Source of the DNA: Candidatus Methanophagales archaeon
GTDB lineage: Archaea; Halobacteriota; Syntropharchaeia; Alkanophagales; Methanospirareceae
Direction of reading: 5' to 3'
Assembly: GCA_014859735.1 (NCBI GenBank)
Contig: JACUTR010000001.1
Location: 1 to 59,395 of the forward strand
Length of the DNA: 59,395 nucleotides
Shown here: piece by piece, positions 395 to 55,218 of the stretch
Layout of the letters: each line of letters starts with the position of its first letter
Numbering within the stretch: the stretch's first letter is position 1
Translations under genes and position numbers: made by a program
The notes under the pieces: generated by a model
The model's database searches: none
What the model was told of the DNA's origin: nothing
What the model saw: the letters and a program-made list of their open reading frames with translations, nothing else

Positions 395-535
395 ATGTGG
401 GGCTCTGCCCCATCACGGGCTCCGCCCGTGCCTCCGCAAACCTTTTCTTAGTAAGAAAAGGTTTATCAAAAGAATATATCTTTCTTAATAAACGTTCTTT
501 CTTTAGAAAGAAAAGGTTTACTGTAAGGGCTTATG
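395..535. repeat. composite repeat cluster: GC-rich palindromic modules (395-437), AT-rich type E element (438-520) and ctgtaagggctta module (521-535)
   Basis: tggggcNNNgcccca; cacgggctccgcccgtg (identical to 53911-53927); the 27-nt perfect palindrome aaaccttttctta-g-taagaaaaggttt (438-464); ttctttc-ttta-gaaagaa; then ctgtaagggcTTA overlapping the ndk stop. Confidence 0.85.
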
Positions 536-1058
536 CCCATTCAGTCACCTCGCACCTGTTCCTAATGACCTTTTTGGTGGGGTAGATCTCTTCAATAATC
601 TCGTCCGGATCGAACCAGAGATAGATCTCTTTTTTCGCGGATTCTTCGGAGTCCGAGCAGTGGATGACGTTCTCCATGATGCCCTTTTTGTTAATCCTGC
701 CGTATGCTCCGCGGATGGATATCGGGTCTGCTTCGAGCGGATTCGTTGCACCGGCGATCCTTCGCACTTTCGAGATCGCGTCCTCCCCTTTGTACACAAA
801 CGCAAGTACGCGTTCATATTCCGGGCCATAGGTTTTACCGGAAAAGTATTCATAAAGGTCATTAAAAAACGGTTCGTCTTTTAAATGCTCGTAATGCTGC
901 TCCGCAAGTTCCCGAGATACCTTGACAACCTTTGCACCAATGATCCTCAGGCGTGCTTCTGAAAGGCGGGTGAGGATGTTCCCGGTCAATGATTTCACCA
1001 GTGCGTCTGGCTTCAGAATAATCAGGGTGTATTGATGTCCCTTTGTTGCTTCGGTCAT
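531..1058 (-). CDS. ndk: nucleoside-diphosphate kinase
   Basis: 175-aa ORF with LIILKPDA, FFNDL, GATNP, IRGAYG and NVIHCSDS motifs. ATG at 1058; the TAA at 531-533 lies inside a repeat module. About 20 aa of C-terminal extension. Confidence 0.85.
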   Translation of the reverse strand: MTEATKGHQYTLIILKPDALVKSLTGNILTRLSEARLRIIGAKVVKVSRELAEQHYEHLKDEPFFNDLYEYFSGKTYGPEYERVLAFVYKGEDAISKVRRIAGATNPLEADPISIRGAYGRINKKGIMENVIHCSDSEESAKKEIYLWFDPDEIIEEIYPTKKVIRNRCEVTEWA

Positions 1059-8455: not shown

Positions 8456-8487
8456 TTTCTTTGATCAAACTTTCTTTGTGAAAGAAG
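8456..8487. repeat. AT-rich palindromic repeat, type C
   Basis: tttctttgatcaaactttcttt (22 nt) is identical to 31465-31486. It continues into a ctttc...gaaag hairpin. Confidence 0.8.
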
Positions 8488-13721: not shown

Positions 13722-14651
13722 TTATAACTCTTTGAGGTGATACAACTCCTCAGCCAACCGCTTTATATAACTCTTCCCTTTTTCACCCTCTTCTAACCTC
13801 TCCACCCAGTCGGTGGGAATTGCCCCGTCGCCATAATAAGCACCACTTATCGCACCCGTCATGGCCCCAATCGTGTCAGTATCGCCACCCAAACTTACCG
13901 CATAGACCACGCTATCCTCAAACTTATCGAAACGAAGAAAGGAGTAAATAGCGGGGGGTACCGAGTTAAAAGCCGCTTCTCCATTACCCAATTCAGCTAT
14001 TACCTCCTTTTTGGAAGCCTCTTTATCCAGAAGGATTGCTATCTTTCTTATCTTCTCCTTATACACGTCATTTCGAACAAACTCGCTCAGGGCGGACACC
14101 ATACCTTCTTGCTGTCCACGAACCGCTAAAGCGATAGAAAAAGCCTGTAACGCTGCTCCCTCTTTGCCCAGCTCGTGAGAATGGGTGATATGGCTTGATT
14201 TATACGCTATCTCCCTCAACGTATCTGCATTATCATAATACACGATTCCGATAGGGGCGATTCGCATCGCAGCTCCGTTTCCGTACGAGCCTTCGCCACC
14301 AAACAGGTTCTCCGAGGCCGCTTCCCAGCCCTCCCCCTCACGTAGCCTTTTTAATGCCTCTTTCGACCCTGGACCATATCCTCTCTTCGCATCATAATTC
14401 TGGATGAACCTACGTGCCATATTCGCACCATTGAAGCCTTTATGCTCGATTAAAGACTCCGCGACCCCTATCATCATCTCTGTATCGTCCGTGTAGCGAC
14501 CGTAAATCATCTTCCACGGTGTTTTCTCGCCGTACACCGAACTTACCATCTCCATGCTCCATCCCTCTACAGGAGCGCCTATTGCATCGCCTACCGCACT
14601 GCCGATGAGCGCCCCGGTAAATTTAGATTTCAGGTCTACATACATGCGCAT
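13722..14651 (-). CDS. ADP-ribosylglycohydrolase family protein
   Basis: 309 aa with GALIGSAVGDAIGAPVEG, YTDDTEM and GGDTDTIGAMTGAISGAYYG motifs of the ARH/DraG family. Confidence 0.8.
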   Translation of the reverse strand: MRMYVDLKSKFTGALIGSAVGDAIGAPVEGWSMEMVSSVYGEKTPWKMIYGRYTDDTEMMIGVAESLIEHKGFNGANMARRFIQNYDAKRGYGPGSKEALKRLREGEGWEAASENLFGGEGSYGNGAAMRIAPIGIVYYDNADTLREIAYKSSHITHSHELGKEGAALQAFSIALAVRGQQEGMVSALSEFVRNDVYKEKIRKIAILLDKEASKKEVIAELGNGEAAFNSVPPAIYSFLRFDKFEDSVVYAVSLGGDTDTIGAMTGAISGAYYGDGAIPTDWVERLEEGEKGKSYIKRLAEELYHLKEL

Positions 14652-14820
14652 TAAAGCCCGCTTTTTCTTTCACTTTCACGTATCTCATTTAAGAATCAGA
14701 TAGAACTCACATTCCGTTGCCGTAACGATTTTATTTTATTGTATTTTATTTTATATCCCGGAGGTGTCATTTGTAGTAATGGTATATTGTTAGCGAAGCA
14801 AATAATTTCGTTTCTGCAGC

Positions 14821-16389
14821 ATGAAGAGAACTATTGTCATTATAATTAGAGATGGATGGGGCATAAATCCAAATTCAAGCTATAACGCAGTGGCAAATGC
14901 GCACACTCCTCACATAGATTCGTTTTTAAAAAGGTATCCCAGCACAATCTTAGAGGCGGCAGGAACCGCTGTCGGACTACCTCCAGGGTATCAGGGTTCT
15001 TCCGAAGTTGGTCACCTTAATATGGGTGCAGGAAGGATAGTAAAGCAAGAGATAACGAGGATAAATGAGGCAATAGAGGACACGTCGTTTTTTTCAAGTT
15101 CTTGCTTCCAGAGCGCTATTAATAACTGCACCTCGAATAACTCAGCGCTGCATCTCATGGGACTTATCCAGGATGCGGGCGTCCACGCGCATCAGGATCA
15201 TCTCTTTGCCATAATGAAATACGCGAAGGGGAGGGGTGTAGACAAGATATATCTTCATTTCTTTTCTGATGGGAGGGATACCGCACCACGGAGTGCATTA
15301 GAATTTCTCGGTGTCGTCAATGAGAAGATAGCGGAATATCAAGCAGGCGAAATTGCTACCTTGATGGGCCGCTACTACGCTATGGATCGCGGAAAGAACT
15401 GGCATTTGACCTCTCAAGCCTACAACACCCTCACAAAAGGAGAGGGTATCAAGGTGAGCAGTGCAGAAGAAGCGGTGAGAAGAGCATACAATGAGGACAG
15501 AACACCCGATGGCGGACAGATGACCGATGAATACATTCCTCCCTCGATTATTGGCACTTTCTCCGGCATCAAAGATGGTGATTCAGTCATTCATTTTAAT
15601 TACAGACAGGATAGAGCGATCCAATTGGCGATGGCTTTTGTCGAGGACGAATATCCTGGAGCGAGGTGGAAGAAGTTAGACATCGTGTATTGTGGTCTCA
15701 CGCGATACTATGATACCTTCCCCGGTTATATGATGGAACCGATCTCGGAAGGTGTAGGGATGGCTAATATTCTGGGGGAGGTACTGAGTGAAAAAGGGTT
15801 AAGACAACTCCGAATTGCAGAGACGCAGAAATTCAGGCATGTGACTTCTTTCTTCAATGGTAAACGAATCGAGCCATTTCCAAACGAAGAGCAAATAGAG
15901 ATTAAGAGTATGTATGACCCTGCGCTGTTTGCCGATCACCCTGAGATGAACGCCTTTGATGTTACTGAGGAAGTAATCAGGAGAATAGAGTCCGAGGGCT
16001 ACCACTTGATCGTTTTAAACTATGCAAACTGTGATATGGTTGGTCATACGGGCGATTTTGAAGCGGCAAAGAGAGCGGTCGAGGTTGTAGATGAATGCGT
16101 GGGCGCAGTAGTTAAGACAATCCTGGCACATGATGGTGTAGCCCTCGTCACCGCAGACCATGGGAATGTCGAGGAGATGAGGGATTACCAAACGGGACTG
16201 CCTAAAACAAGCCATACGAACAACCCGGTGGAATTCATTTACGTTGCGGAAGATTATAGGGAGATTAAACTCAGACCTCGGGGAATTCTTTCGGATATCG
16301 CGCCAACCGTTTTGTTTCTGCTGGGAATAGATAAGCCACAAGAGATGACCAGTGAAAATTTAGTTCGAGCTATTTGTAGAGCGGAGTAA
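14821..16389 (+). CDS. gpmI: 2,3-bisphosphoglycerate-independent phosphoglycerate mutase (bacterial-type iPGM)
   Basis: 522 aa with SEVGHLNMGAGR, DGRDT and NCDMVGHTG...TADHGN motifs. Confidence 0.9.
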   Translation: MKRTIVIIIRDGWGINPNSSYNAVANAHTPHIDSFLKRYPSTILEAAGTAVGLPPGYQGSSEVGHLNMGAGRIVKQEITRINEAIEDTSFFSSSCFQSAINNCTSNNSALHLMGLIQDAGVHAHQDHLFAIMKYAKGRGVDKIYLHFFSDGRDTAPRSALEFLGVVNEKIAEYQAGEIATLMGRYYAMDRGKNWHLTSQAYNTLTKGEGIKVSSAEEAVRRAYNEDRTPDGGQMTDEYIPPSIIGTFSGIKDGDSVIHFNYRQDRAIQLAMAFVEDEYPGARWKKLDIVYCGLTRYYDTFPGYMMEPISEGVGMANILGEVLSEKGLRQLRIAETQKFRHVTSFFNGKRIEPFPNEEQIEIKSMYDPALFADHPEMNAFDVTEEVIRRIESEGYHLIVLNYANCDMVGHTGDFEAAKRAVEVVDECVGAVVKTILAHDGVALVTADHGNVEEMRDYQTGLPKTSHTNNPVEFIYVAEDYREIKLRPRGILSDIAPTVLFLLGIDKPQEMTSENLVRAICRAE

Positions 16390-17697: not shown

Positions 17698-17740
17698 TTG
17701 TTCTTAGTAAAGATTCTTTCTTTAGTTTAGAGAGAAAGTG
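17698..17740. repeat. degenerate AT-rich palindromic repeat
   Basis: ttcttagtaa...ttctttctttag... resembles parts of 438-520, in the priS/GINS spacer. Confidence 0.4.
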
Positions 17741-19679: not shown

Positions 19680-19757
19680 AAACCTTCTCTTGAGAAGAAA
19701 AGCGGTGCTATAAAGATTTTTCTTTAATAACCCTTTCTTTTTAAGAAGAAAAGTTTT
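19680..19757. repeat. AT-rich palindromic repeat, type E (copy 2)
   Basis: Colinear with 438-520 at roughly 75-80% identity by eye (aaaccttCtcttGaGaagaaaag...tttctttaataa...ctttctttttaagaagaaaag). It ends at the base before the nop10 ATG. Confidence 0.8.
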
Positions 19758-19943
19758 ATGAAGTCACAGATAAGGAAATGTGGAGCGTGTGGAGAATATA
19801 CCTTGAAGGAGGTTTGCGAGAAGTGTGGAGGAGTGACAGAGAATCCACTACCTCCAAGGTTCTCCCCGAAAGATCCGTATGGGAAGTATAGAAGGATGAT
19901 GAAATATGCAAGAGATAGAAATACGCGAGCTAAAAAAGGTTAA
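19758..19943 (+). CDS. nop10: H/ACA RNP protein Nop10
   Basis: 61 aa: CGACGEYTLKEVCEKCGG...PPRFSPKDPYGKYRR. Confidence 0.9.
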   Translation: MKSQIRKCGACGEYTLKEVCEKCGGVTENPLPPRFSPKDPYGKYRRMMKYARDRNTRAKKG

Positions 19944-20664: not shown

Positions 20665-20764
20665 GTTTAAAAAATCCCAAATCCCAATATAGGCGAGAAA
20701 TACAAAATCTAAATACTACCAAATTCTTGGGATTTGGAAATAGGGATTTACTTGGGATTTGGTA

Positions 20765-20828
20765 GTGGGGCCCCGCCCCACGGCCCCGAAAACCCTGTAA
20801 GGGTTTACCTGAAAGGCTCAGTAAGGGC
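20765..20828. repeat. GC-rich modular palindromic repeat
   Basis: Modules are gtggggcNNNgccccac, ggccccgaaa, accctgtaagggt, cctgaaagg and ctcagtaagggctt. The same module set occurs at 38710-38789 and 49288-49331. Confidence 0.85.
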
Positions 20829-20856
20829 TTATGTGACATTGGGATTTTCGCTGACG

Positions 20857-24283: not shown

Positions 24284-24329
24284 TGCACTTTCTTTCTAAA
24301 GAAAGAACCTGCACTAAGAAAGAGTATAA
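24284..24329. repeat. AT-rich palindromic repeat, type B (copy 1)
   Basis: tgcactttctttctaaagaaagaacctgcactaagaaagagtataa. Related copies lie at 31397-31438 and 57587-57627. Confidence 0.75.
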
Positions 24330-31438: not shown

Positions 31439-31464
31439 CCTCATGCTTTTTGCGGTAGAAAGTT

Positions 31465-31499
31465 TTTCTTTGATCAAACTTTCTTTTTGAAAAAGAAAG
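31465..31499. repeat. AT-rich palindromic repeat, type C (copy 2)
   Basis: Its first 22 nt are identical to 8456-8477, followed by the ctttctttttgaaaaagaaag palindrome. Confidence 0.8.
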
Positions 31500-31504
31500 T
31501 TTGA

Positions 31505-31577
31505 GCCAAGGTGGCGGAGAGGCTGACGCGGCTGACTGCAGATCAGCTATACCCCGGTTCAATTCCGGGCCTTGGCT
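31505..31577 (+). tRNA. tRNA-Cys (anticodon GCA)
   Basis: Hand-folded: acceptor gccaagg/ccttggc, anticodon stem gctga/tcagc with loop ctGCAga, T-arm cccgg-ttcaatt-ccggg, discriminator U. Confidence 0.92.
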
Positions 31578-38622: not shown

Positions 38623-39948
38623 TTACGCAATAACTTCTCCCATCAAATACGTGCTCTTTGCCTCCCGTATCCGCACCGTATACGTGGCACCGAGTGGCAA
38701 ATCATTATAAACGGGGCTCCGCCCCGTTGACCCCGAAATCGCGGGCTCTGCCCGCGTTCCCGCGAGCCTGAAAGGCTCAGTAAGGGTTTTTAGTACGATC
38801 ATCCGATACGCCGGGTCCCTTCCTATTACGCCTCCTTTCTTCCCCTTCTCCGTTATTAAAACAGGGAGTTCCTTTCCTTCCAACTCGTTATTCTTCTCGA
38901 GAACAATCGTGCGATAAAGCGAAGAGAAGATTCTCGACCTCCTTTTCTTCTCCCGCTCCAGCAAGTCCTTTAAATTCGATGCTTCCGTCCCCGGTCGTGG
39001 AGAAAACCTCGTTATATTCACTTTTTCCGGTTTTACTTCATCCAACAGGTTCAAAGAGGAGAAGAAATCCTCTTCCGTCTCGGTTGGAAATCCAATGATG
39101 AAATCCGTGCAGAGTGTGCTGTATTCGAATCGCTTTCGTATGCTTTTTACTAGCTCAACGAAATCATCAGCTTTATAATCCCTTCTCATATCTCTCAGCA
39201 CCTTATCAGAGCCAGATTGCACGGGCACGTGAAAGAATTTGAAGATCTTCTTGGAGTCGAATGCCTCAAGGAGTTCATCTAAGATCCGAATCACGGTAAA
39301 TGGGTTCATCATGCCCACTCGTATTCTAAAATCACCCTCCAGAGAGGTCACCATGTCTAACAACTCGGGGAGCTTTAAGGTACCTAACTTCTCCCAGCCA
39401 TAGGCACTACAGTCCTGTGCAGTAATTCTTATTTCCTTCGCACCTCGTTCCACCACACTTTTAACCGCTTCGCATATCTTTTCGGGCTTGTAGCTTCTCA
39501 TATCGCCCTTCGCTTGTCTCACGATGCAATACGAACATTCCCCTACGCAGCCTACTGCTATCGGAATGATACCAACCACACCGTCAACATCAAGCCCTTG
39601 ATCCTCACTATACCTATCACCGATATCTCGTGGTGTTAGCAGTGTCACATCTTCGCCTAAAATACTCTTCACCAATCCAGGCTGTGCTGCCGCCATACAA
39701 CCTGCTACAACCACCTCTTTACTCTCGTCCTTCAACTCCTTCAGCCTCTTTATCACATTTAATTCCGTCCTTTTCGTTACCGTGCACGTATTCACGATAA
39801 CAACATCGGCTTTACTTTCCTCTACGAGCTCGTGCCCATTATTCCTTAGGATAGCGCGCATCTTCATCGTGTCACCCACATTGGCAGTGCAGCCGAACGT
39901 TTCGAAGTAAAATTTTTTGGGCTTTATGTATGTGTTTACTAAAGGCAT
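38623..39948 (-). CDS. radical-SAM methylthiotransferase, archaeal MiaB-like (UPF0004 + radical SAM + TRAM)
   Basis: 441 aa: N-terminal FETFGCTAN...NTCTV, a CxxxCxxC cluster (CVGECSYC) and a C-terminal TRAM-like domain interrupted by the 27 codons encoded by repeat 38710-38789. Confidence 0.85.
   Translation of the reverse strand: MPLVNTYIKPKKFYFETFGCTANVGDTMKMRAILRNNGHELVEESKADVVIVNTCTVTKRTELNVIKRLKELKDESKEVVVAGCMAAAQPGLVKSILGEDVTLLTPRDIGDRYSEDQGLDVDGVVGIIPIAVGCVGECSYCIVRQAKGDMRSYKPEKICEAVKSVVERGAKEIRITAQDCSAYGWEKLGTLKLPELLDMVTSLEGDFRIRVGMMNPFTVIRILDELLEAFDSKKIFKFFHVPVQSGSDKVLRDMRRDYKADDFVELVKSIRKRFEYSTLCTDFIIGFPTETEEDFFSSLNLLDEVKPEKVNITRFSPRPGTEASNLKDLLEREKKRRSRIFSSLYRTIVLEKNNELEGKELPVLITEKGKKGGVIGRDPAYRMIVLKTLTEPFRLAGTRAEPAISGSTGRSPVYNDLPLGATYTVRIREAKSTYLMGEVIA
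38710..38789. repeat. GC-rich modular palindromic repeat, 80-nt copy inside a CDS
   Basis: Reverse complement of 43906-43985 with 79/80 identity by hand alignment. Confidence 0.9.
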
Positions 39949-41258: not shown

Positions 41259-43796
41259 TTACGTGCTCTTTTGAATCACATCTACTGCTACCACACGCTC
41301 GCCATCATTTACATGCATCAGCCTCACACCCTGCGTATTTCTCCCTTTCATGGGAATACTTCGGGCAGAAATTCGTGTCACCATCCCGTTAGAAGTGGTA
41401 ACCATCAACTCATCGTCATTCTTTACTTGCTTTATACATACCACGTTCCCATTTCTTTCCATAACTCTCATACTAATCACACCTTTACCACCCCGATGTG
41501 TTTCTCGGTACGCATTCAACCTCGTTCTTTTACCATACCCTTTCTCGGTTATCGTAACGACCTTTGAAGAACTCAAACTCAAATTAACGGCATCAATACT
41601 CGCTATCTCATCGTCCCTTTCCAACCTCATCCCCCTTACTCCTGATGCATATCTGCCCATCTCCCGCAGTTCCTCTTCCTGGAACAAGATTGCCTTTCCA
41701 TTCTTAGAGCTTATGATTATACCATTCCGCTCTCCACCCAGGTGGGCGTGTACGGGCTCAATCAACGCCACATCAGCTAACGAATCGCCCTTGATACGAT
41801 CAATCCTAACGGCAACGATCCCCGTGGCGCGTATAGACCTCAGCTTAACAAGTGAGCTCCTTTTTACCACGCCTCGTTTGGTAGCGAAGACGATAAATGA
41901 ATCCTCGGTTTTAGTTTCTATACCCTTATCTACCTCCTCAGGTATAGCGATAGCGGCTACGAATTTTTCCCTTTCTTCGGTCTCCGTTTGGCTTATGCTC
42001 AGTCCTGGGATGTTCAACAGGGGTTTCCCTTTTGTATGTCGGCTACTTGAAGGGATTTCGTAGGTCTTCACCTGGTATGCCCTGCCAGAATCGGTGAAGA
42101 GGATCAGACGTTCCCGTGTGGACGCGCGTATGAAATTGACGATCGCATCATCTTCTCTCTTCTCTATCACGGCAATTCCTTTTCCTCCCCGTCTTTGCTG
42201 CTTAAAAATGTTCGCCGGTAATCGCTTCACATAGTCACGCTGCGTAAAAAAGAGGATGACTTCTTCCTCCTCTATAAAATCGCGCTCGCTTAAAATCACC
42301 TCTTCCTCTATTTCGGTCCTTCTCGCATCGCCGTACTTATCCTTCAGCTCGATCAGTTCTTCTTTTATGATGCCACGTATTCGGGCTTCACTTGCCAGCA
42401 CCTCTTTTAACCACGTTATCTTCGTCTCCAGCTCTGATCGCTCAGTTTCTATTTTGTCACGCTCTAAAGCACTCAATCGCGAGAGCCGCATCTCCAGTAT
42501 CTCTTTCGCCTGCTCCTCGCTCAGCTCAAATTTCTCAATCAGAGCGGATTTTGCCGTTTTGCTATCGCTTGAAGCTTTTATAAGCCTTATCACCTCGTCT
42601 ATATGCGCTATTGCAATGATTAAGCCCTCTACTATGTGCTTTCGCTTCTCAGCACGATCTAATTCATATTGCAGCCTTCTGATCGTTACTTCTCTCCTGT
42701 GCGTGATGTAACATTCGATCAACTCTTTGAGCGTTAATATCCGTGGTTCGCCATCCACCAGGGCGAGATTGATTACACCAAACGTGGTTTCCAATTGCGT
42801 GTGTTTATAAAGCTTGTTTAAAACAATCGAGGAATTAACTCCGGTTTTCAGTTCTATTACAATCCTCAATCCTTTGCGATCTGATTCATCTCTTAATCCC
42901 GTAATGCTGTCCACCTTGTATCTCCTGACGAACTCAGCTATCTCCTCTACCAGTTTGCTTTTGTTTACCTGGTATGGTATCTCGTTGACGATTATTCGCT
43001 CCCTCTTTGCCGTTCTTTCTATCTCCACCGTTGCTCTTAGCTTTAAGCTGCCCCTACCAGTTTCATACGCCTGTTTTATGCCGTCGTAGCCAGAAATGAT
43101 TGCGCCTGTGGGGAAATCAGGAGCTCTTATTATCAGCATCAGCTCTCCAATACTCACGTTTGGCTCGTCTATCACTCTTATTATGCCATCCACCACTTCG
43201 GCTAAATTATGGGGGGGCATGTTAGTAGCCATACCAACAGCGATACCGGAAGAGCCGTTTATCAAGAGGTTAGGGAGCTTTGCGGGTAAAATCAGTGGCT
43301 CTTTGAGCGTGTTATCAAAGTTAGGACTCCATGCGACGGTATCTTTATCGAGATCAACCAGCAGTTCCTCGGCTATCTTTGATAGCCGCACTTCGGTGTA
43401 TCGCATTGCAGCAGCAGCATCTCCGTCTATACTCCCGAAATTGCCCTGACCATCTATCAACGGGTACCGGTGAGCAAAATCCTGCGCCATTCTCACCATG
43501 GTATCGTAAACGGCAACGTCACCGTGGGGATGGTATTTCCCGAGAACATCTCCTACTATCCGCGCTGATTTCTTATGCGGTTTGTCATGGGGGACGCCGA
43601 GTTCATGCATTCCGTATAATATACGACGATGCACCGGTTTTAGCCCATCACGAGCGTCAGGAAGAGCTCTCCCCACAATTACGCTCATTGCGTAGTCTAT
43701 GTACGAGCTCTTCATCTCGTCTTCAACGCTGACTTCTATCACACGCTCACGGTCATCGTCTCGCATCTCGTTTCTCTCATGCTCGTTTTCGTTCAT
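41259..43796 (-). CDS. gyrA: DNA gyrase subunit A
   Basis: 845 aa: [27 protein letters not shown], the active-site AAMRYTE and a C-terminal beta-pinwheel repeat region. Confidence 0.97.
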
Positions 43797-43905
43797 AGCT
43801 ATAGTTAGAATTATGGATTCGAAGGTAATAAAGGATGAGAGCGTCTCAAAACCCGCAGCCGGTAAACTTTTATAAGGGATAAAGGAGATACTAATTACTA
43901 AATAT

Positions 43906-43985
43906 AAACCCTTACTGAGCCTTTCAGGCTCGCGGGAACGCGGGCAGAGCCCGCGATTTCGGGGTCAACGGGGCGAAGCCCCGTT
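43906..43985. repeat. GC-rich modular palindromic repeat, 80-nt intergenic copy
   Basis: Lies in the gyrA/dnaK divergent spacer and ends 23 nt before the dnaK ATG. Modules are ccttactgagcctttcaggctc, gcgggcagagcccgc and aacggggcgaagccccgtt. Confidence 0.9.
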
Positions 43986-44008
43986 AGAAAGGATTTGGAG
44001 GCTAAAAA

Positions 44009-48104: not shown

Positions 48105-49457
48105 TTATTGTTTCAGGTACTCTCGCAGCAGAACCGTTGCATACGAGCCTTTAGGCAGGGAAAACTGTACTGCCAGTTTAAATCGTCCGGGATTGAGTTC
48201 GTCTTCGTTAAGGTTATCATCGCTCAACTTCACCTTCACCGGCACCAAGACTGGTCTTCTCGTGCCTTTGGAACTTATTTCCGGCATCTTTTCGATAGAA
48301 AAAGTGCTTAATTCTACCGCTTCATCCCCAAGAACCTGCCTTTCTATCTCTCCTTGCACACCATCTGCAAACTCAGTTTCAGAGCCAACGAGAGGAGCAG
48401 TGACAAAAGCCCTTCCCCGCTTTATCAGCCGGTTTATGCCCTCTATTTTAGCTTCGGTGACGTTCTCCACCTTATCCGGGTCCGCAATTCCAAGATCAGT
48501 GTGAAAACAGACCACATCACCCACTACCGCTTCGTTAAAGGGTACGTTTCGTTTCATCCGGTGACTTAAAAGGAGATTGAAGAGATACGCTTGATACGCA
48601 TGAACGAAGAGTTTTTGTAAGTTCTTTGGGAGGACAGAAAAAGCAGAAATGAAATTTGCTTCACCTTCACTACCGCTTTTTACCAGCTCATTCAGCATCG
48701 CTCGTTCGTATCGTAAGAACAATGGCATTCGTTTCAAGCACTCTTTGAGTTCACCATTCCTGCATACCATCCGCGCCTGTTTCGCCTCCTCGCTTTCCTC
48801 TGGGAAGATATCGGAGATGTAAGACATCACCGCTTCTTGTAGTTCACCGTTTATCAGGTGTTTTCCCACGATATGCGTTATCGGGCGGCTGATGCCAAAC
48901 CGCTGAACGCCGAAGAAATTGGGTATTCCGCCCGTATTCTCTATTTCTTTTGTTATCAACTCGATTTTTTCCATTATCTCGTCTTTATTCCCTTCTATGC
49001 CACGAATAACAATCTCAAACTCGTTTCCATAAAGGTCGCCCAAGGAAACGGCTTTGTTCGATCGTCCGATTATTTTAAAGGAGACATCAGCGATTTTTAC
49101 TCGGTTTAGCTCGTCTTCATCGGTATCCCAGATACTAATGCGCTGCGTTGTCAGGGCGAATTTGTCCTTGGTGCCGGCGAACCCAATCCTGTTCCTGCTC
49201 ACGCGCAGCCTCCGTGAGATTTCTCTTATTACGGTATGAGTATCCCAGTTCTCCTTCGTCAGTTCTGCGATTAAATATCTCCCCTCTAACGGGGCTTCGC
49301 CCCGTTGGCCCCGCAAGCCCTGTAAGGGCTTTGTAATCTCACGCACGATGAAGTCAGTGGGTATTGTTTTTATCGTTCCACCTATTCCGTCGGGGTGCGT
49401 TGCGTAAAACCAGATCCCTATCCGTTTTTCGTACTCCGGGCTCTCTTTTAGTTCCAT
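48105..49457 (-). CDS. truD: tRNA pseudouridine synthase TruD/Pus7 family
   Basis: 450 aa with GIGGTIKTIPTDFIVREI, FAGTKDK (catalytic Asp region) and NFFGVQRFG motifs. 14-17 codons near residue 45-60 are encoded by repeat modules. Confidence 0.88.
   Translation of the reverse strand: MELKESPEYEKRIGIWFYATHPDGIGGTIKTIPTDFIVREITKPLQGLRGQRGEAPLEGRYLIAELTKENWDTHTVIREISRRLRVSRNRIGFAGTKDKFALTTQRISIWDTDEDELNRVKIADVSFKIIGRSNKAVSLGDLYGNEFEIVIRGIEGNKDEIMEKIELITKEIENTGGIPNFFGVQRFGISRPITHIVGKHLINGELQEAVMSYISDIFPEESEEAKQARMVCRNGELKECLKRMPLFLRYERAMLNELVKSGSEGEANFISAFSVLPKNLQKLFVHAYQAYLFNLLLSHRMKRNVPFNEAVVGDVVCFHTDLGIADPDKVENVTEAKIEGINRLIKRGRAFVTAPLVGSETEFADGVQGEIERQVLGDEAVELSTFSIEKMPEISSKGTRRPVLVPVKVKLSDDNLNEDELNPGRFKLAVQFSLPKGSYATVLLREYLKQ
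49288..49331. repeat. GC-rich palindromic repeat modules inside the truD CDS
   Basis: aacggggcttcgccccgtt is the exact reverse complement of 43967-43985. cccgcaagccctgtaagggctt (49310-49331) is identical to 53954-53975. Confidence 0.9.
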
Positions 49458-50136: not shown

Positions 50137-50170
50137 AAGCTTCTCTCAGAGCCGCTTCGGGGTTCAGGGT
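50137..50170. repeat. local about-34-nt motif, copy A (aagcttctctcagagccgcttcggggttcagggt)
   Basis: Direct reading; aligns with copies at 50425-50467, 51266-51300 and 52913-52946, all in the same orientation. Confidence 0.8.
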
Positions 50171-50424: not shown

Positions 50425-50467
50425 CCCTCTCAAAGCTCCTTTCACATCCGCTTCGGGGGTTCAGAGT
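50425..50467. repeat. local motif, copy B (with about 11-nt internal insertion)
   Basis: ccctctcaaagc[tcctttcacat]ccgcttcgggggttcagagt. Confidence 0.6.
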
Positions 50468-51265: not shown

Positions 51266-51300
51266 AAACTTCTCTCAGAGCCGCTTCGGGATTCGGGGTG
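51266..51300. repeat. local motif, copy C
   Basis: aaacttctctcagagccgcttcgggattcggggtg. Confidence 0.8.
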
Positions 51301-52912: not shown

Positions 52913-52946
52913 AAGCTTCTTCCAGAGCCGTCTTCGTGTTTCGGGT
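52913..52946. repeat. local motif, copy D (more diverged)
   Basis: aagcttcttccagagccgtcttcgtgtttcgggt. Confidence 0.6.
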
Positions 52947-53896: not shown

Positions 53897-53975
53897 GTGG
53901 CCTCTGCCCATCACGGGCTCCGCCCGTGCCCCCGCAAGCCCAGGAGAGGCTTACCCGCAAGCCCTGTAAGGGCTT
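53897..53975. repeat. GC-rich modular palindromic repeat array
   Basis: gtggcctctgcccat, cacgggctccgcccgtg (identical to 414-430), cccccgcaa, ...cccgcaagccctgtaagggctt. The last bases overlap the moeA stop codon. Confidence 0.85.
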
Positions 53976-55218
53976 ACCATGAGTAATATTCGGTTACCGC
54001 GACCAGCTCTCCTTCTGCTACTCCTTCCTTATTCTCCGGGATTACGACAAAGCCGTCCGACTTGGTCATGCTGGATAAGATGCCCGAGCCGCTTACCCGT
54101 ATCGGCTCTGCAAAATACCCCTGCTCGGTGCGAAGCACCTTCACACGCACGAAATCGGTTCTCCCAACTGCCGAAGGGATTTTCTTGCTCGCCCGAGCAA
54201 AGATTTTCCTTTGCTCTTCTGTCACACCGTGCATCGCATACAAAAAGGGGCGAACGAGCAGTTCAAACGCAGCTATCGTCGCCACAGGATAACCGGGGAG
54301 AACGAATATCGGCTTGGTGTTGATGATGCCGAAACCGGTTGGTTCCCCGGGTCGAATCGCGACGCCATGGAATATAAGCTCCCCTAAATCCTCGACTGCA
54401 TCACCCAGGAAATCTCTGGTACCTACCGAACTCCCACCACTCACTAATAACCCCTCACACCCTCGTTCTAACGACGAACGGAGTGCGTCCTTTATCTCGT
54501 CGTAATTGTCACGTACTATGCCGATTCTATACGGATTTGCGATCTTTTGCGTTAATGCTGCAAGGGTATAACTATTCGAATCTGCGATCTTCTGTTTCCT
54601 TTGCCACTGGTCGTGCTCGGCCGACTGCAACGCAGGGTCTATCAGCTCGTCGCCCGTGGCGATTATGCCGAGCTTTGCCCTCTTATACACCCTTATCGTT
54701 CTTGTAAAAAGAGATGCGAGCATGCCGAGATCATGAGCTCGCAGTATCTTCCCGGCCTTTAAGATCGCTTCGCCCTTCTTCACATCCTCACCCTGAAAAG
54801 AGACGTTTTTACCCGGTGTAACGGGCTTGAAAATCTCCACGGTATCGCCTCTTTCCCTCGTATATTCGAGCATAACAACCGCGTTGCTGCCTTGTGGCAG
54901 CGGCATCCCGGTTGCTATCGGCACGCAATCACCCTCCGCAAGTTCTGCGCGGTTTTCTTCTCCTCCCCCACTCTTCTTTCTCTTCAAAAGCACGGGATTT
55001 TGCGGAGATGCGCCAAAAGAGTCCTCGCCTCGAATCGCATACCCATCCATCGCAGCCCGGTCAAAAGGGGGGCTGTCGATGGGCGAAAGAATATCTTCTG
55101 CTAAAACCCTGGTCAATGCATCCTCAAATCGGATTTCCTCGAGTTCTGTCCTCTCTGCATGCGGTAACACCGTCTTTAATGCCTCTTCCCATGAGATAAG
55201 CGTACGAAAAAGCTTCAT
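53974..55218 (-). CDS. moeA: molybdopterin molybdenumtransferase
   Basis: 414 aa with PPFDRAAMDGYA, GGSSVGTRDF and LPGYPVA motifs. Confidence 0.9.
   Translation of the reverse strand: MKLFRTLISWEEALKTVLPHAERTELEEIRFEDALTRVLAEDILSPIDSPPFDRAAMDGYAIRGEDSFGASPQNPVLLKRKKSGGGEENRAELAEGDCVPIATGMPLPQGSNAVVMLEYTRERGDTVEIFKPVTPGKNVSFQGEDVKKGEAILKAGKILRAHDLGMLASLFTRTIRVYKRAKLGIIATGDELIDPALQSAEHDQWQRKQKIADSNSYTLAALTQKIANPYRIGIVRDNYDEIKDALRSSLERGCEGLLVSGGSSVGTRDFLGDAVEDLGELIFHGVAIRPGEPTGFGIINTKPIFVLPGYPVATIAAFELLVRPFLYAMHGVTEEQRKIFARASKKIPSAVGRTDFVRVKVLRTEQGYFAEPIRVSGSGILSSMTKSDGFVVIPENKEGVAEGELVAVTEYYSW

Follow-up and report, generated by a model that had tools for sequence, protein, structure and literature searches.

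The contig studied here, JACUTR010000001.1 of assembly GCA_014859735.1 (Candidatus Methanophagales archaeon), belongs to the ANME-1 archaea, which are uncultured and perform much of the anaerobic oxidation of methane. We analyzed positions 1 to 59,395 of its forward strand, a stretch of 59,395 nt that we refer to as the window; it is archaeal and contains a 16S-tRNA(Ala)-23S-tRNA(Cys) operon, and the sources named for its closest protein relatives put it within ANME-1/Methanophagales. An intact gene for the tRNA pseudouridine(13) synthase TruD (450 amino acids) occupies 48105..49457 on the minus strand. The open reading frame (ORF) encodes a full-length TruD: it aligns with positions 2-412 of the 412-position Pfam profile PF01142 (497 bits) and with the structure of Methanosarcina mazei TruD, 1Z2Z, at E = 9e-138. 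The gene looks functional, because the catalytic GTKDK motif (K97 D98 K99) is invariant across the family alignment (A1). Within this gene, at 49287..49331 of the same strand, the ORF, the repeat consensus and the alignment with the DNA of relatives delimit a double-hairpin repeat unit of 45 nt that is read in frame as 15 codons. As a sequence-only reading of the window had proposed, the TruD frame stays open through this segment.

The same reading had noted an exact reverse complement of 49288-49306 at 43967-43985 and an exact 22-nt match of 49310-49331 at 53954-53975. Both matches were confirmed, and together with T49287 the two segments form a single unit consisting of a GC hairpin, a GGCCCCG linker and a CCCTGTAAGGG hairpin. 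The first, or G-type, hairpin (AACGGGGC-TTC-GCCCCGTT, 49288..49306) has a predicted 8-bp stem whose pairing is conserved in variants. The linker (49307..49313; canonically GACCCCG) repeats the 3' arm of that hairpin and is a likely slippage point; module insertions and deletions between the window and its relatives are bordered by repeated linkers. The second, or T-type, hairpin (CAAGCCC-TGTA-AGGGCTT, 49314..49331) is supported by covariation and by the predicted fold and has an exact copy at 53958-53975. The pattern AACGGGGCTTCGCCCCGTT occurs exactly at 49288-49306 (+) and 43967-43985 (-) and with one mismatch at 38710-38728, against a chance expectation of 0.01, and CCCGCAAGCCCTGTAAGGGCTT occurs exactly at 49310-49331 and 53954-53975, against an expectation of 0.00. 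These statistics, and the recurrence of the unit in independent assemblies, rule out chance or an assembly artefact.

A two-module pattern of 26 nt, AACGGGGCNNNGCCCCGTTGNCCCCG, was scanned against one genome from each of 185,579 species and yielded 74 loci. Two were chance hits in high-GC bacteria, and the rest fell in metagenome-assembled genomes (MAGs) of archaea, from at least 18 assemblies, the majority of which are labelled ANME-1 or Methanophagales. At most of the loci the pattern ran on into the same second hairpin. About 27 loci each came from the MAGs "Nitrosotalea sp. BE2011_44_29" and "archaeon Yes46-13"; since their flanks are 92-100% identical to the window, these MAGs are ANME-1 despite their titles. 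Titles or binning look wrong for the contigs L020 and L050 (DYFG01, 'Nitrosotalea sp. BE2011_44_29'), L042 (JASEFB01, 'archaeon Yes46-13') and L074 ('Bathyarchaeia'), all of which are either 92-100% identical to the window or orthologous to ANME-1 loci. The TruD segment is best explained as one copy of a dispersed, very small, modular hairpin repeat family that appears to be specific to ANME-1.

From 56 canonical copies, which are near-identical and 45-46 nt long, we derived the consensus T-AACGGGGC-TYY-GCCCCGTT-GACCCCG-[A/C]AA[A/G]CCC-TGTA-AGGG[T/C]TT-A. They vary only within the loop and at a single covarying stem pair (A-T to G-C; consensus positions 30/42). Longer forms carry extra hairpins between or after the two end modules, namely CGCGGGC-TCT-GCCCGCG, GTGGGGC-TCT-GCCCCAC, GAGCC-TGAAA-GGCTC or additional CCCTGTAAGGG units. 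In 149 G-type hairpins, comprising 31 variants, three positions of the stem beyond its fixed GGGC/GCCC core remain paired in 24-27 of the 31, with several pair types; since pairing is kept by compensatory changes, the hairpin itself is the conserved feature. RNA folding predicted two independent stable hairpins (-20 to -27 kcal/mol). A known RNA family was ruled out, as Rfam 15 gave no matches at the repeat loci and permissive scans reached at most 18 bits against thresholds of at least 35 bits. A protein-database search with a 45-residue peptide was uninformative, yielding just two candidates and no matches. Directly 3' of the element, AGCGGAAATCTTTTTTGTCCGCAGGATAAATGGATGCAACAATTGATG is conserved in L008, L031, L049, L074 and L076, which are MAG loci from different sites.

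Alignment of 120 TruD homologues revealed a short loop, REV-TNRTEG-xEGKYLI, at the insert site in 117 of them, consistent with the earlier proposal of a lineage-specific insert. The three exceptions were the window itself, P0006 from ANME-1-THS (TruD 74% identical), whose 30-residue loop is encoded by a longer form of the window's element, and P0055, whose loop reads APKTQRAEAP and whose DNA holds a degraded hairpin, CGAGCCGAAGCTCCC. The homologue that shares the peptide also carries the nucleotide repeat, so the case that the sequence-only reading had named as a refutation, orthologues showing this peptide but no repeat in their DNA, did not occur. The closest relative available, L001 (TruD 89% identical in amino acids, on a syntenic contig of 87 kb), reads ACG-AATAGAACCGAGGGAAGT-GAAGGA where the window reads ACA-[45-nt unit]-GAGGGG. 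Here 45 nt stand in place of 18 nt of ancestral loop, a net difference of 27 nt, so that of the predicted insert of 14 to 17 residues the element does encode 15, while the net gain over orthologues is only 9. In the truD gene of ANME-1-THS (L002), both junctions are identical to those of the window, and a further 45 nt of internal hairpins are present.

The flanks of the insert carry a trace of its history. L001 and L002 differ at 301 informative sites in truD, and the window agrees with L001 at 244 of these. Nevertheless, an unbroken run of L002-like sites spans the insert, and even with the element columns excluded, eight consecutive host-flank sites (three upstream, five downstream, mostly synonymous) are L002-like (permutation p = 3.5e-5). 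In the string of informative sites, the minimal THS-like patch covers 49262..49337 (-), and the nearest L001-like sites, at ~49341 and ~49231, limit it to at most ~110 nt. These patterns indicate one old insertion, whose allele may have been moved or retained via a short homologous-recombination tract: the window and THS have both junctions in common and have lost the same 18 nt, five relatives lack the insert and P0055 has a remnant. An independent insertion at the same TruD site would be much less likely.

AlphaFold, run on a 54-sequence alignment, modelled the window TruD at a mean pLDDT of 87, placing the insert between beta-strands 36-42 and 61-69 and giving residues 46-54 values below 50. 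The corresponding loop is short in 1Z2Z. The insert is thus most likely a disordered surface loop, modelled at a point where the fold would tolerate insertion. A second in-frame insertion, after residue ~261 and reading CGAPPHDPASPVRAY, was found in three other ANME-1 TruDs (P0047, P0080 and P0092); the inserted unit is of the GTGGGGC type, runs in the opposite orientation and sits nested in an AT-rich hairpin repeat. Since that insertion is independent, TruD has been hit at least twice. P0092 (L078) has the GC double hairpin nested in the AT hairpin with everything in frame, and P0051, P0067 and P0102 read LSFKKKALPKK at the AT-hairpin site.

Six element loci were found in the window. Besides the truD copy, a four-module copy at ~38708..38791 (-) lies in frame in the TRAM region of a MiaB-like methylthiotransferase (ORF 38623..39948, minus strand; UPF0004, Radical_SAM and TRAM domains). 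It has a different module set and a different frame, as the sequence-only reading had stated, the common hairpin being read as STGRSPV there and as QRGEAPL in TruD. At this site THS is empty (YRMVVLDEEVPLG), L001 has two modules and the window has four (36 nt more). The MiaB-like gene of THS was called as two separate ORFs (L002 13829-14203, with UPF0004, and 14219-15094, with Radical_SAM and TRAM), which could reflect a frameshift, a pseudogene or an assembly error. Another four-module copy, of 82 nt at 43905..43986 (+), occupies the gyrA/dnaK spacer, ends ~20 nt upstream of the ATG of dnaK and is cleanly absent in L001 and L002. This copy and the one at 38698-38792 are 94% reverse-complementary.

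The remaining copies are also intergenic. An array at 53897..53976 (+) abuts the moeA stop codon and has one 23-nt module more than L001, the 23-nt indel being bordered by an 11-nt direct repeat, GGGCTTGCGGG. A three-module copy at 20765..20831 (+) lies between convergent genes, within arrays of the motifs AAATCCCAA/TTGGGATTT. At 397..533 (+) there is a composite copy, with GC modules at 397-445 and 520-533 and AT-rich hairpins at 446-519 between them. The reverse situation occurs as well, with the window empty where L020 has an 86-nt array, and at every site examined presence or absence is polymorphic between close relatives. Composite units were inserted as blocks (75-108 nt in L012/L055 versus L041). 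At two orthologous sites within coding sequences, in TruD and in a YjeF-type enzyme, THS has a long form and the clade of the window a short one; the repeated CGGGGTC/GACCCCG linker borders each form, a pattern that fits contraction by linker slippage. Of the earlier suggestion of a modular, recombining element, then, it holds that whole hairpin modules differ between orthologous sites, while free recombination of modules describes these differences less aptly than slippage or deletion combined with nested insertion.

Several further observations concern the surroundings of these copies. The AAATCCCAA/TTGGGATTT arrays flank intergenic GC elements in the window (20665-20763 and ~20838) and in L017, L054 and L072, and arrays and elements combine into a composite repeat of ~200 nt that recurs in several ANME-1 MAGs. 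The AT-rich hairpins that interrupt the GC element at 446-519 belong to a second repeat family (for example TTTGATCAAACTTTCTTTTTGAAAAAGAAAGTTT), with copies in the window at 442-520, 8456-8483, 17701-17725, 19717-19758, 24289-24323 and 31463-31510 and in L078 at ~2280-2400. The stop codons of moeA (53974-53976) and of ORF 531..1058 (531-533) fall within the terminal TTA of the element (TAA on the gene strand), and in several MAG loci (L053, L063, L066 and L036) the element supplies a C-terminal tail, such as ...KPLQGLRGQRGRAPLFEKRR. The gyrA genes of L001 (17579-17589) and L042 (4532-4560) contain the element-derived stretches ALIKPLQGLRNG and KPLQGLRGRGAEPH, respectively, and the gyrA of the window (41259-43796) has none. 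Adjoining truD, a 34-nt direct repeat, AAGCTTCTCTCAGAGCCGCTTCGGGGTTCAGGGT, is present within 3 kb in four intergenic copies that are 71-91% identical (50137-50170, 50433-50466, 51266-51299 and 52913-52946). In one ANME-1 MAG, the gene next to truD (L078 3030-3398) has 23S_rRNA_IVP and bAvd-like Pfam matches and is perhaps accessory to a diversity-generating retroelement.

We took a census of 542 kb of ANME-1 DNA, with loci ascertained through one pattern and gene calls approximated by long ORFs. It comprised 114 element clusters, of which 41 lay in ORFs of at least 120 amino acids; because of the ascertainment and the gene calls, the resulting ~36% is an approximate figure, and orthologous pairs inflate the counts. 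The in-ORF copies were strongly oriented, 38 one way and 3 the other (n = 41). Intergenic copies were evenly split relative to the nearest gene (23 forward, 23 reverse; 17 and 13 near 3' ends, 6 and 10 near 5' ends), and we therefore rejected an orientation bias of the insertion mechanism. Many copies abut stop codons or sit in 5' leaders, and decayed copies exist.

Reading frame was equally skewed. When 48 in-ORF copies were scored in a second pass, 34 used the frame seen in TruD (KPLQG..RGQRG..APL), 4 the MiaB frame and 1 a third frame; of the remainder, 2 were in the sole open forward frame and 7 were variant forms. The earlier proposal that only copies avoiding stops are retained is right in that the copies within coding sequences are stop-free. 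Stop avoidance alone is nevertheless insufficient for the skew, since the canonical unit can be read through in three frames, two of them only conditionally; the simplest reading is selection on the peptide. Length differences within coding sequences are multiples of three (45 and 78 nt), compared with 23 nt for one intergenic difference.

Ten of the host ORFs proved to be conserved enzymes that hold the element within their Pfam domain, which, with the census counts, bears out the earlier guess that in-gene copies occur genome-wide and extends it to the lineage as a whole. The confirmed hosts include chorismate synthase, TruA, GyrA, a class-I W/Y aminoacyl-tRNA synthetase (TrpRS-type), a pyridoxal phosphate (PLP) enzyme, a YjeF-type NAD(P)HX repair enzyme with two inserts, an asparagine/diphthamide synthase-like protein, a Clp1-type kinase and MvhD/FlpD-type iron-sulfur proteins. 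No functional theme is common to these genes.

The junctions are precise at the ends of the element and variable in their overlap. Over 31 non-redundant sites, T preceded the element in 30 (position -1) and A followed it in 26 (position +1), with weak preferences at -3 (A), -5 (C) and -8 (T). The consensus has no terminal inverted repeats, and junction ambiguity was 0, 2 (TA) or 4 (GCTT) nt, with no constant target-site duplication. A TA duplication would fit the dnaK site and the T...A flanks, but it fails at L042/L001 (no TA) and at L020/window (GCTT). Mobility is read from the presence/absence patterns, since no partner enzyme, inverted repeats or consistent duplication were found. A parent insertion sequence (IS) or larger autonomous element was rejected: sequence common beyond the hairpins extends for just ~60-100 nt, and the DNA between elements spaced by 0.25-3 kb held either ordinary ORFs or none that reached 90 amino acids. 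The 26-nt pattern had no match in 2.9 million viral contigs, and a viral vector was likewise rejected.

Taken together, these results make it probable that the unit is a proliferating, translated and largely selfish element, akin to the Rickettsia palindromic elements (RPEs) and to REP (repetitive extragenic palindrome) elements, that is filtered by selection. It would proliferate as DNA that is selfish or close to neutral, by a copying or insertion process that depends on the hairpins and probably involves single-stranded DNA. Arrays would grow by nested insertion and shrink by slippage between repeated xxCCCCG linkers. Copies landing in genes would be translated, and selection would keep those in tolerant loops and in a benign frame, where the retained peptide is hydrophilic and rich in Gly, Arg and Pro (KPLQG(F/L)RGQRGxAPL). 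The TruD copy itself may derive from an older, longer insertion like that of ANME-1-THS and have reached the window's lineage, or persisted in it, on the short recombination tract.

Several points weigh against this reading. The TruD copy substitutes for 18 nt of host sequence and is not a plain addition, and it is shared with a lineage of 74% TruD identity while being absent in five relatives at 85-89%. No transposase or other partner was found in the 542 kb, where the ORFs were not screened with transposase profiles. Translation is inferred from frame, length and stop-codon statistics, and the direction of allele transfer is likewise an inference. Finally, the elements seem more conserved than their flanks, which could mean a host-level function: orthologous copies showed 2/218 substitutions compared with 132/1994 in the flanks, a comparison that is no more than suggestive, since its loci were picked by an exact pattern match, which biases the sample; window and L001 gave roughly 2/108 in elements compared with about 8%.

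An alternative is that the hairpins are cis elements selected by the host, which could act on DNA or RNA by binding a protein, by signalling mRNA stability or a 3' end or by pausing translation; the copies in genes would then have a function or at least be maintained. The compensatory changes in the stems, the near-identity of the element across ANME-1 lineages whose proteins are just ~75% identical, the (biased) excess of substitutions in the flanks and the many copies at stop codons or in 5' leaders all agree with it. Such conservation is equally expected, however, if copying is limited to intact hairpins or if the copies homogenize one another, and a host signal fits poorly with a presence that varies between close relatives at every site examined, with the even intergenic orientation, with functionally unrelated host genes, with decayed copies and with the absence of any Rfam match. 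We regard this explanation as unlikely. No more likely is a further-reaching reading, in which ANME-1 would actively maintain the unit, a hairpin module of codon length, for a role at the host level, such as recognition by a lineage-specific nuclease or DNA- or RNA-binding protein. The unit would then be conserved above the coding DNA around it and exchanged between lineages on short recombination tracts, with the copies in dozens of housekeeping proteins as a by-product, and would amount to a structured cis-code common to the lineage. The segment might instead be removed before the protein is made, as a bulge-helix-bulge mRNA intron, by translational bypass or as an intein-like element, leaving TruD without the 15 residues; the sequence-only reading had brought up splicing, and the strong predicted structure and the length in multiples of three would suit it. 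Yet the predicted fold consists of two independent hairpins with no bulge-helix-bulge, no conserved splice helix could be formed with flanks that are unrelated between sites, and 15 residues are far too few for an intein. Absence of stops, lengths in multiples of three (45 and 78 nt) and the one-frame bias of copies in genes, as opposed to a 23-nt difference and no bias between genes, make sense only under translation, so that removal is extremely improbable.

The remaining alternative differs on mechanism alone and would have the copies arise without a dedicated transposase, by microhomology-guided template switching during repair or replication, in which a hairpin array at one locus would be copied into a break or a stalled fork at another. 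Junction overlaps of 0-4 nt (TA, GCTT or none) with no fixed duplication, the host nucleotides lost at the TruD site, elements nested in other hairpins, variable composite units inserted as blocks and the conversion-like patch in the TruD allele would all be accommodated by it. The sharp ends and the uniform 46-nt form are more typical of ends defined by an enzyme, and subterminal hairpins with neither inverted repeats nor duplication are also a signature of the IS200/IS605 type. We hold template switching to be a serious but not the favored possibility. Within the picture of a selfish, translated element, enzyme-driven and repair-driven spread stand roughly even; in the former case, the uniform ends would resemble single-strand HUH/Y1 systems such as IS200/IS605 and REP with its associated tyrosine transposase (RAYT).

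In behavior, the closest analogue among known systems is the RPE, which has in-frame copies in many metabolic genes (Ogata et al. 2000, in the summary of PMC10969869). Like RPEs, the ANME-1 repeats are dispersed palindromes, a large fraction of which lie in frame in unrelated housekeeping genes and encode a conserved peptide, apparently at sites where the fold is tolerant. We found the features of the class here, namely a multicopy palindrome, in-frame copies with a conserved peptide and, in TruD, the only protein for which fold tolerance was examined, a tolerant loop. The RPE family proper is set apart by length and host: RPEs are bacterial and measure ~100-150 bp, unlike the archaeal unit of 45-46 nt, which moreover consists of interchangeable hairpin modules of ~20-27 nt that vary in number between close relatives. 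No kinship in sequence is evident either, though the RPE-1 to RPE-10 consensus sequences were not compared directly.

Similarity to REP sequences and to REPINs, their inverted-doublet form, lies in short (20-40 nt), GC-rich, imperfect palindromes of high copy number, often clustered, with neither terminal inverted repeats nor target duplication. REPs are, however, extragenic by definition (PMC12306157), in contrast to the ~36% of ANME-1 copies in ORFs, and they move as inverted doublets, whereas the two ANME-1 hairpins differ and stand in direct order. REPs also carry a GTAG or CGTC tag (PMC3733652); no such end tag is present here, as the ends of the consensus are TAACGGGG... and ...AAGGGYTTA and only 1 of the 31 hairpin variants begins with GTAG. 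No RAYT-like ORF bracketed by elements was found in the 542 kb, a search that involved neither a whole genome nor transposase profiles. The BOX elements of Streptococcus pneumoniae, with their modular boxA-boxB(n)-boxC structure, and other modular repeats like miniature inverted-repeat transposable elements (PMC10969869) likewise combine conserved modules at the ends with inner modules that vary in number. Unlike the ANME-1 repeats, BOX elements are larger, bacterial and essentially intergenic, and no sequence relationship is evident.

Mobile GC clusters and double-hairpin elements occur in fungal and sponge mitochondria (PMC2800124). The very small dispersed repeats (SDR) of cyanobacteria, of about 21-27 nt, were reportedly described by Elhai and colleagues in 2008. 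Both differ from the ANME-1 family in host and sequence. We know of no report that any of them shows a comparable one-frame bias over dozens of housekeeping proteins. They share with our family tiny hairpin units that nest in one another and occasional in-frame copies in coding or RNA genes of an AT-richer genome. Classical miniature inverted-repeat transposable elements do not match, since the ends of the ANME-1 unit are not inverted repeats and no constant duplication was seen. The haloarchaeal PATEs, palindrome-associated elements derived from IS200/IS605, are also archaeal, have subterminal hairpins and lack both inverted repeats and target duplications. They are hundreds of bp long, though, with ends recognizably derived from a resident IS; for the ANME-1 unit, we found neither a parent IS nor a conserved target of 4-5 nt like the one 3' of which IS200/IS605-type elements insert, only the T at -1 (30 of 31 sites) and weak preferences for A at -3 and C at -5 on the target side.

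Full-text searches of a limited literature collection returned no description of such repeats in ANME-1 or Methanophagales. The element is apparently an archaeal, 45-nt, modular counterpart of the in-frame palindromic repeats, of a kind undescribed in archaea. It is a sharp lineage marker and exposed mislabelled MAGs as ANME-1. If our reading is correct, it would also explain length heterogeneity and possible misannotation among ANME-1 proteins, and it would raise the concrete question of what enzyme copies a double hairpin of 45 nt. Alleles that are filled, empty, long, short or eroded would form a natural series on how well conserved folds tolerate loop insertion. A tiny repeat would then have added loops to many core enzymes of ANME-1, among them TruD, TruA, GyrA, chorismate synthase, an aminoacyl-tRNA synthetase and MvhD-type proteins, and the "selfish DNA in protein-coding genes" of Rickettsia would extend to the Archaea with a much smaller, modular element.

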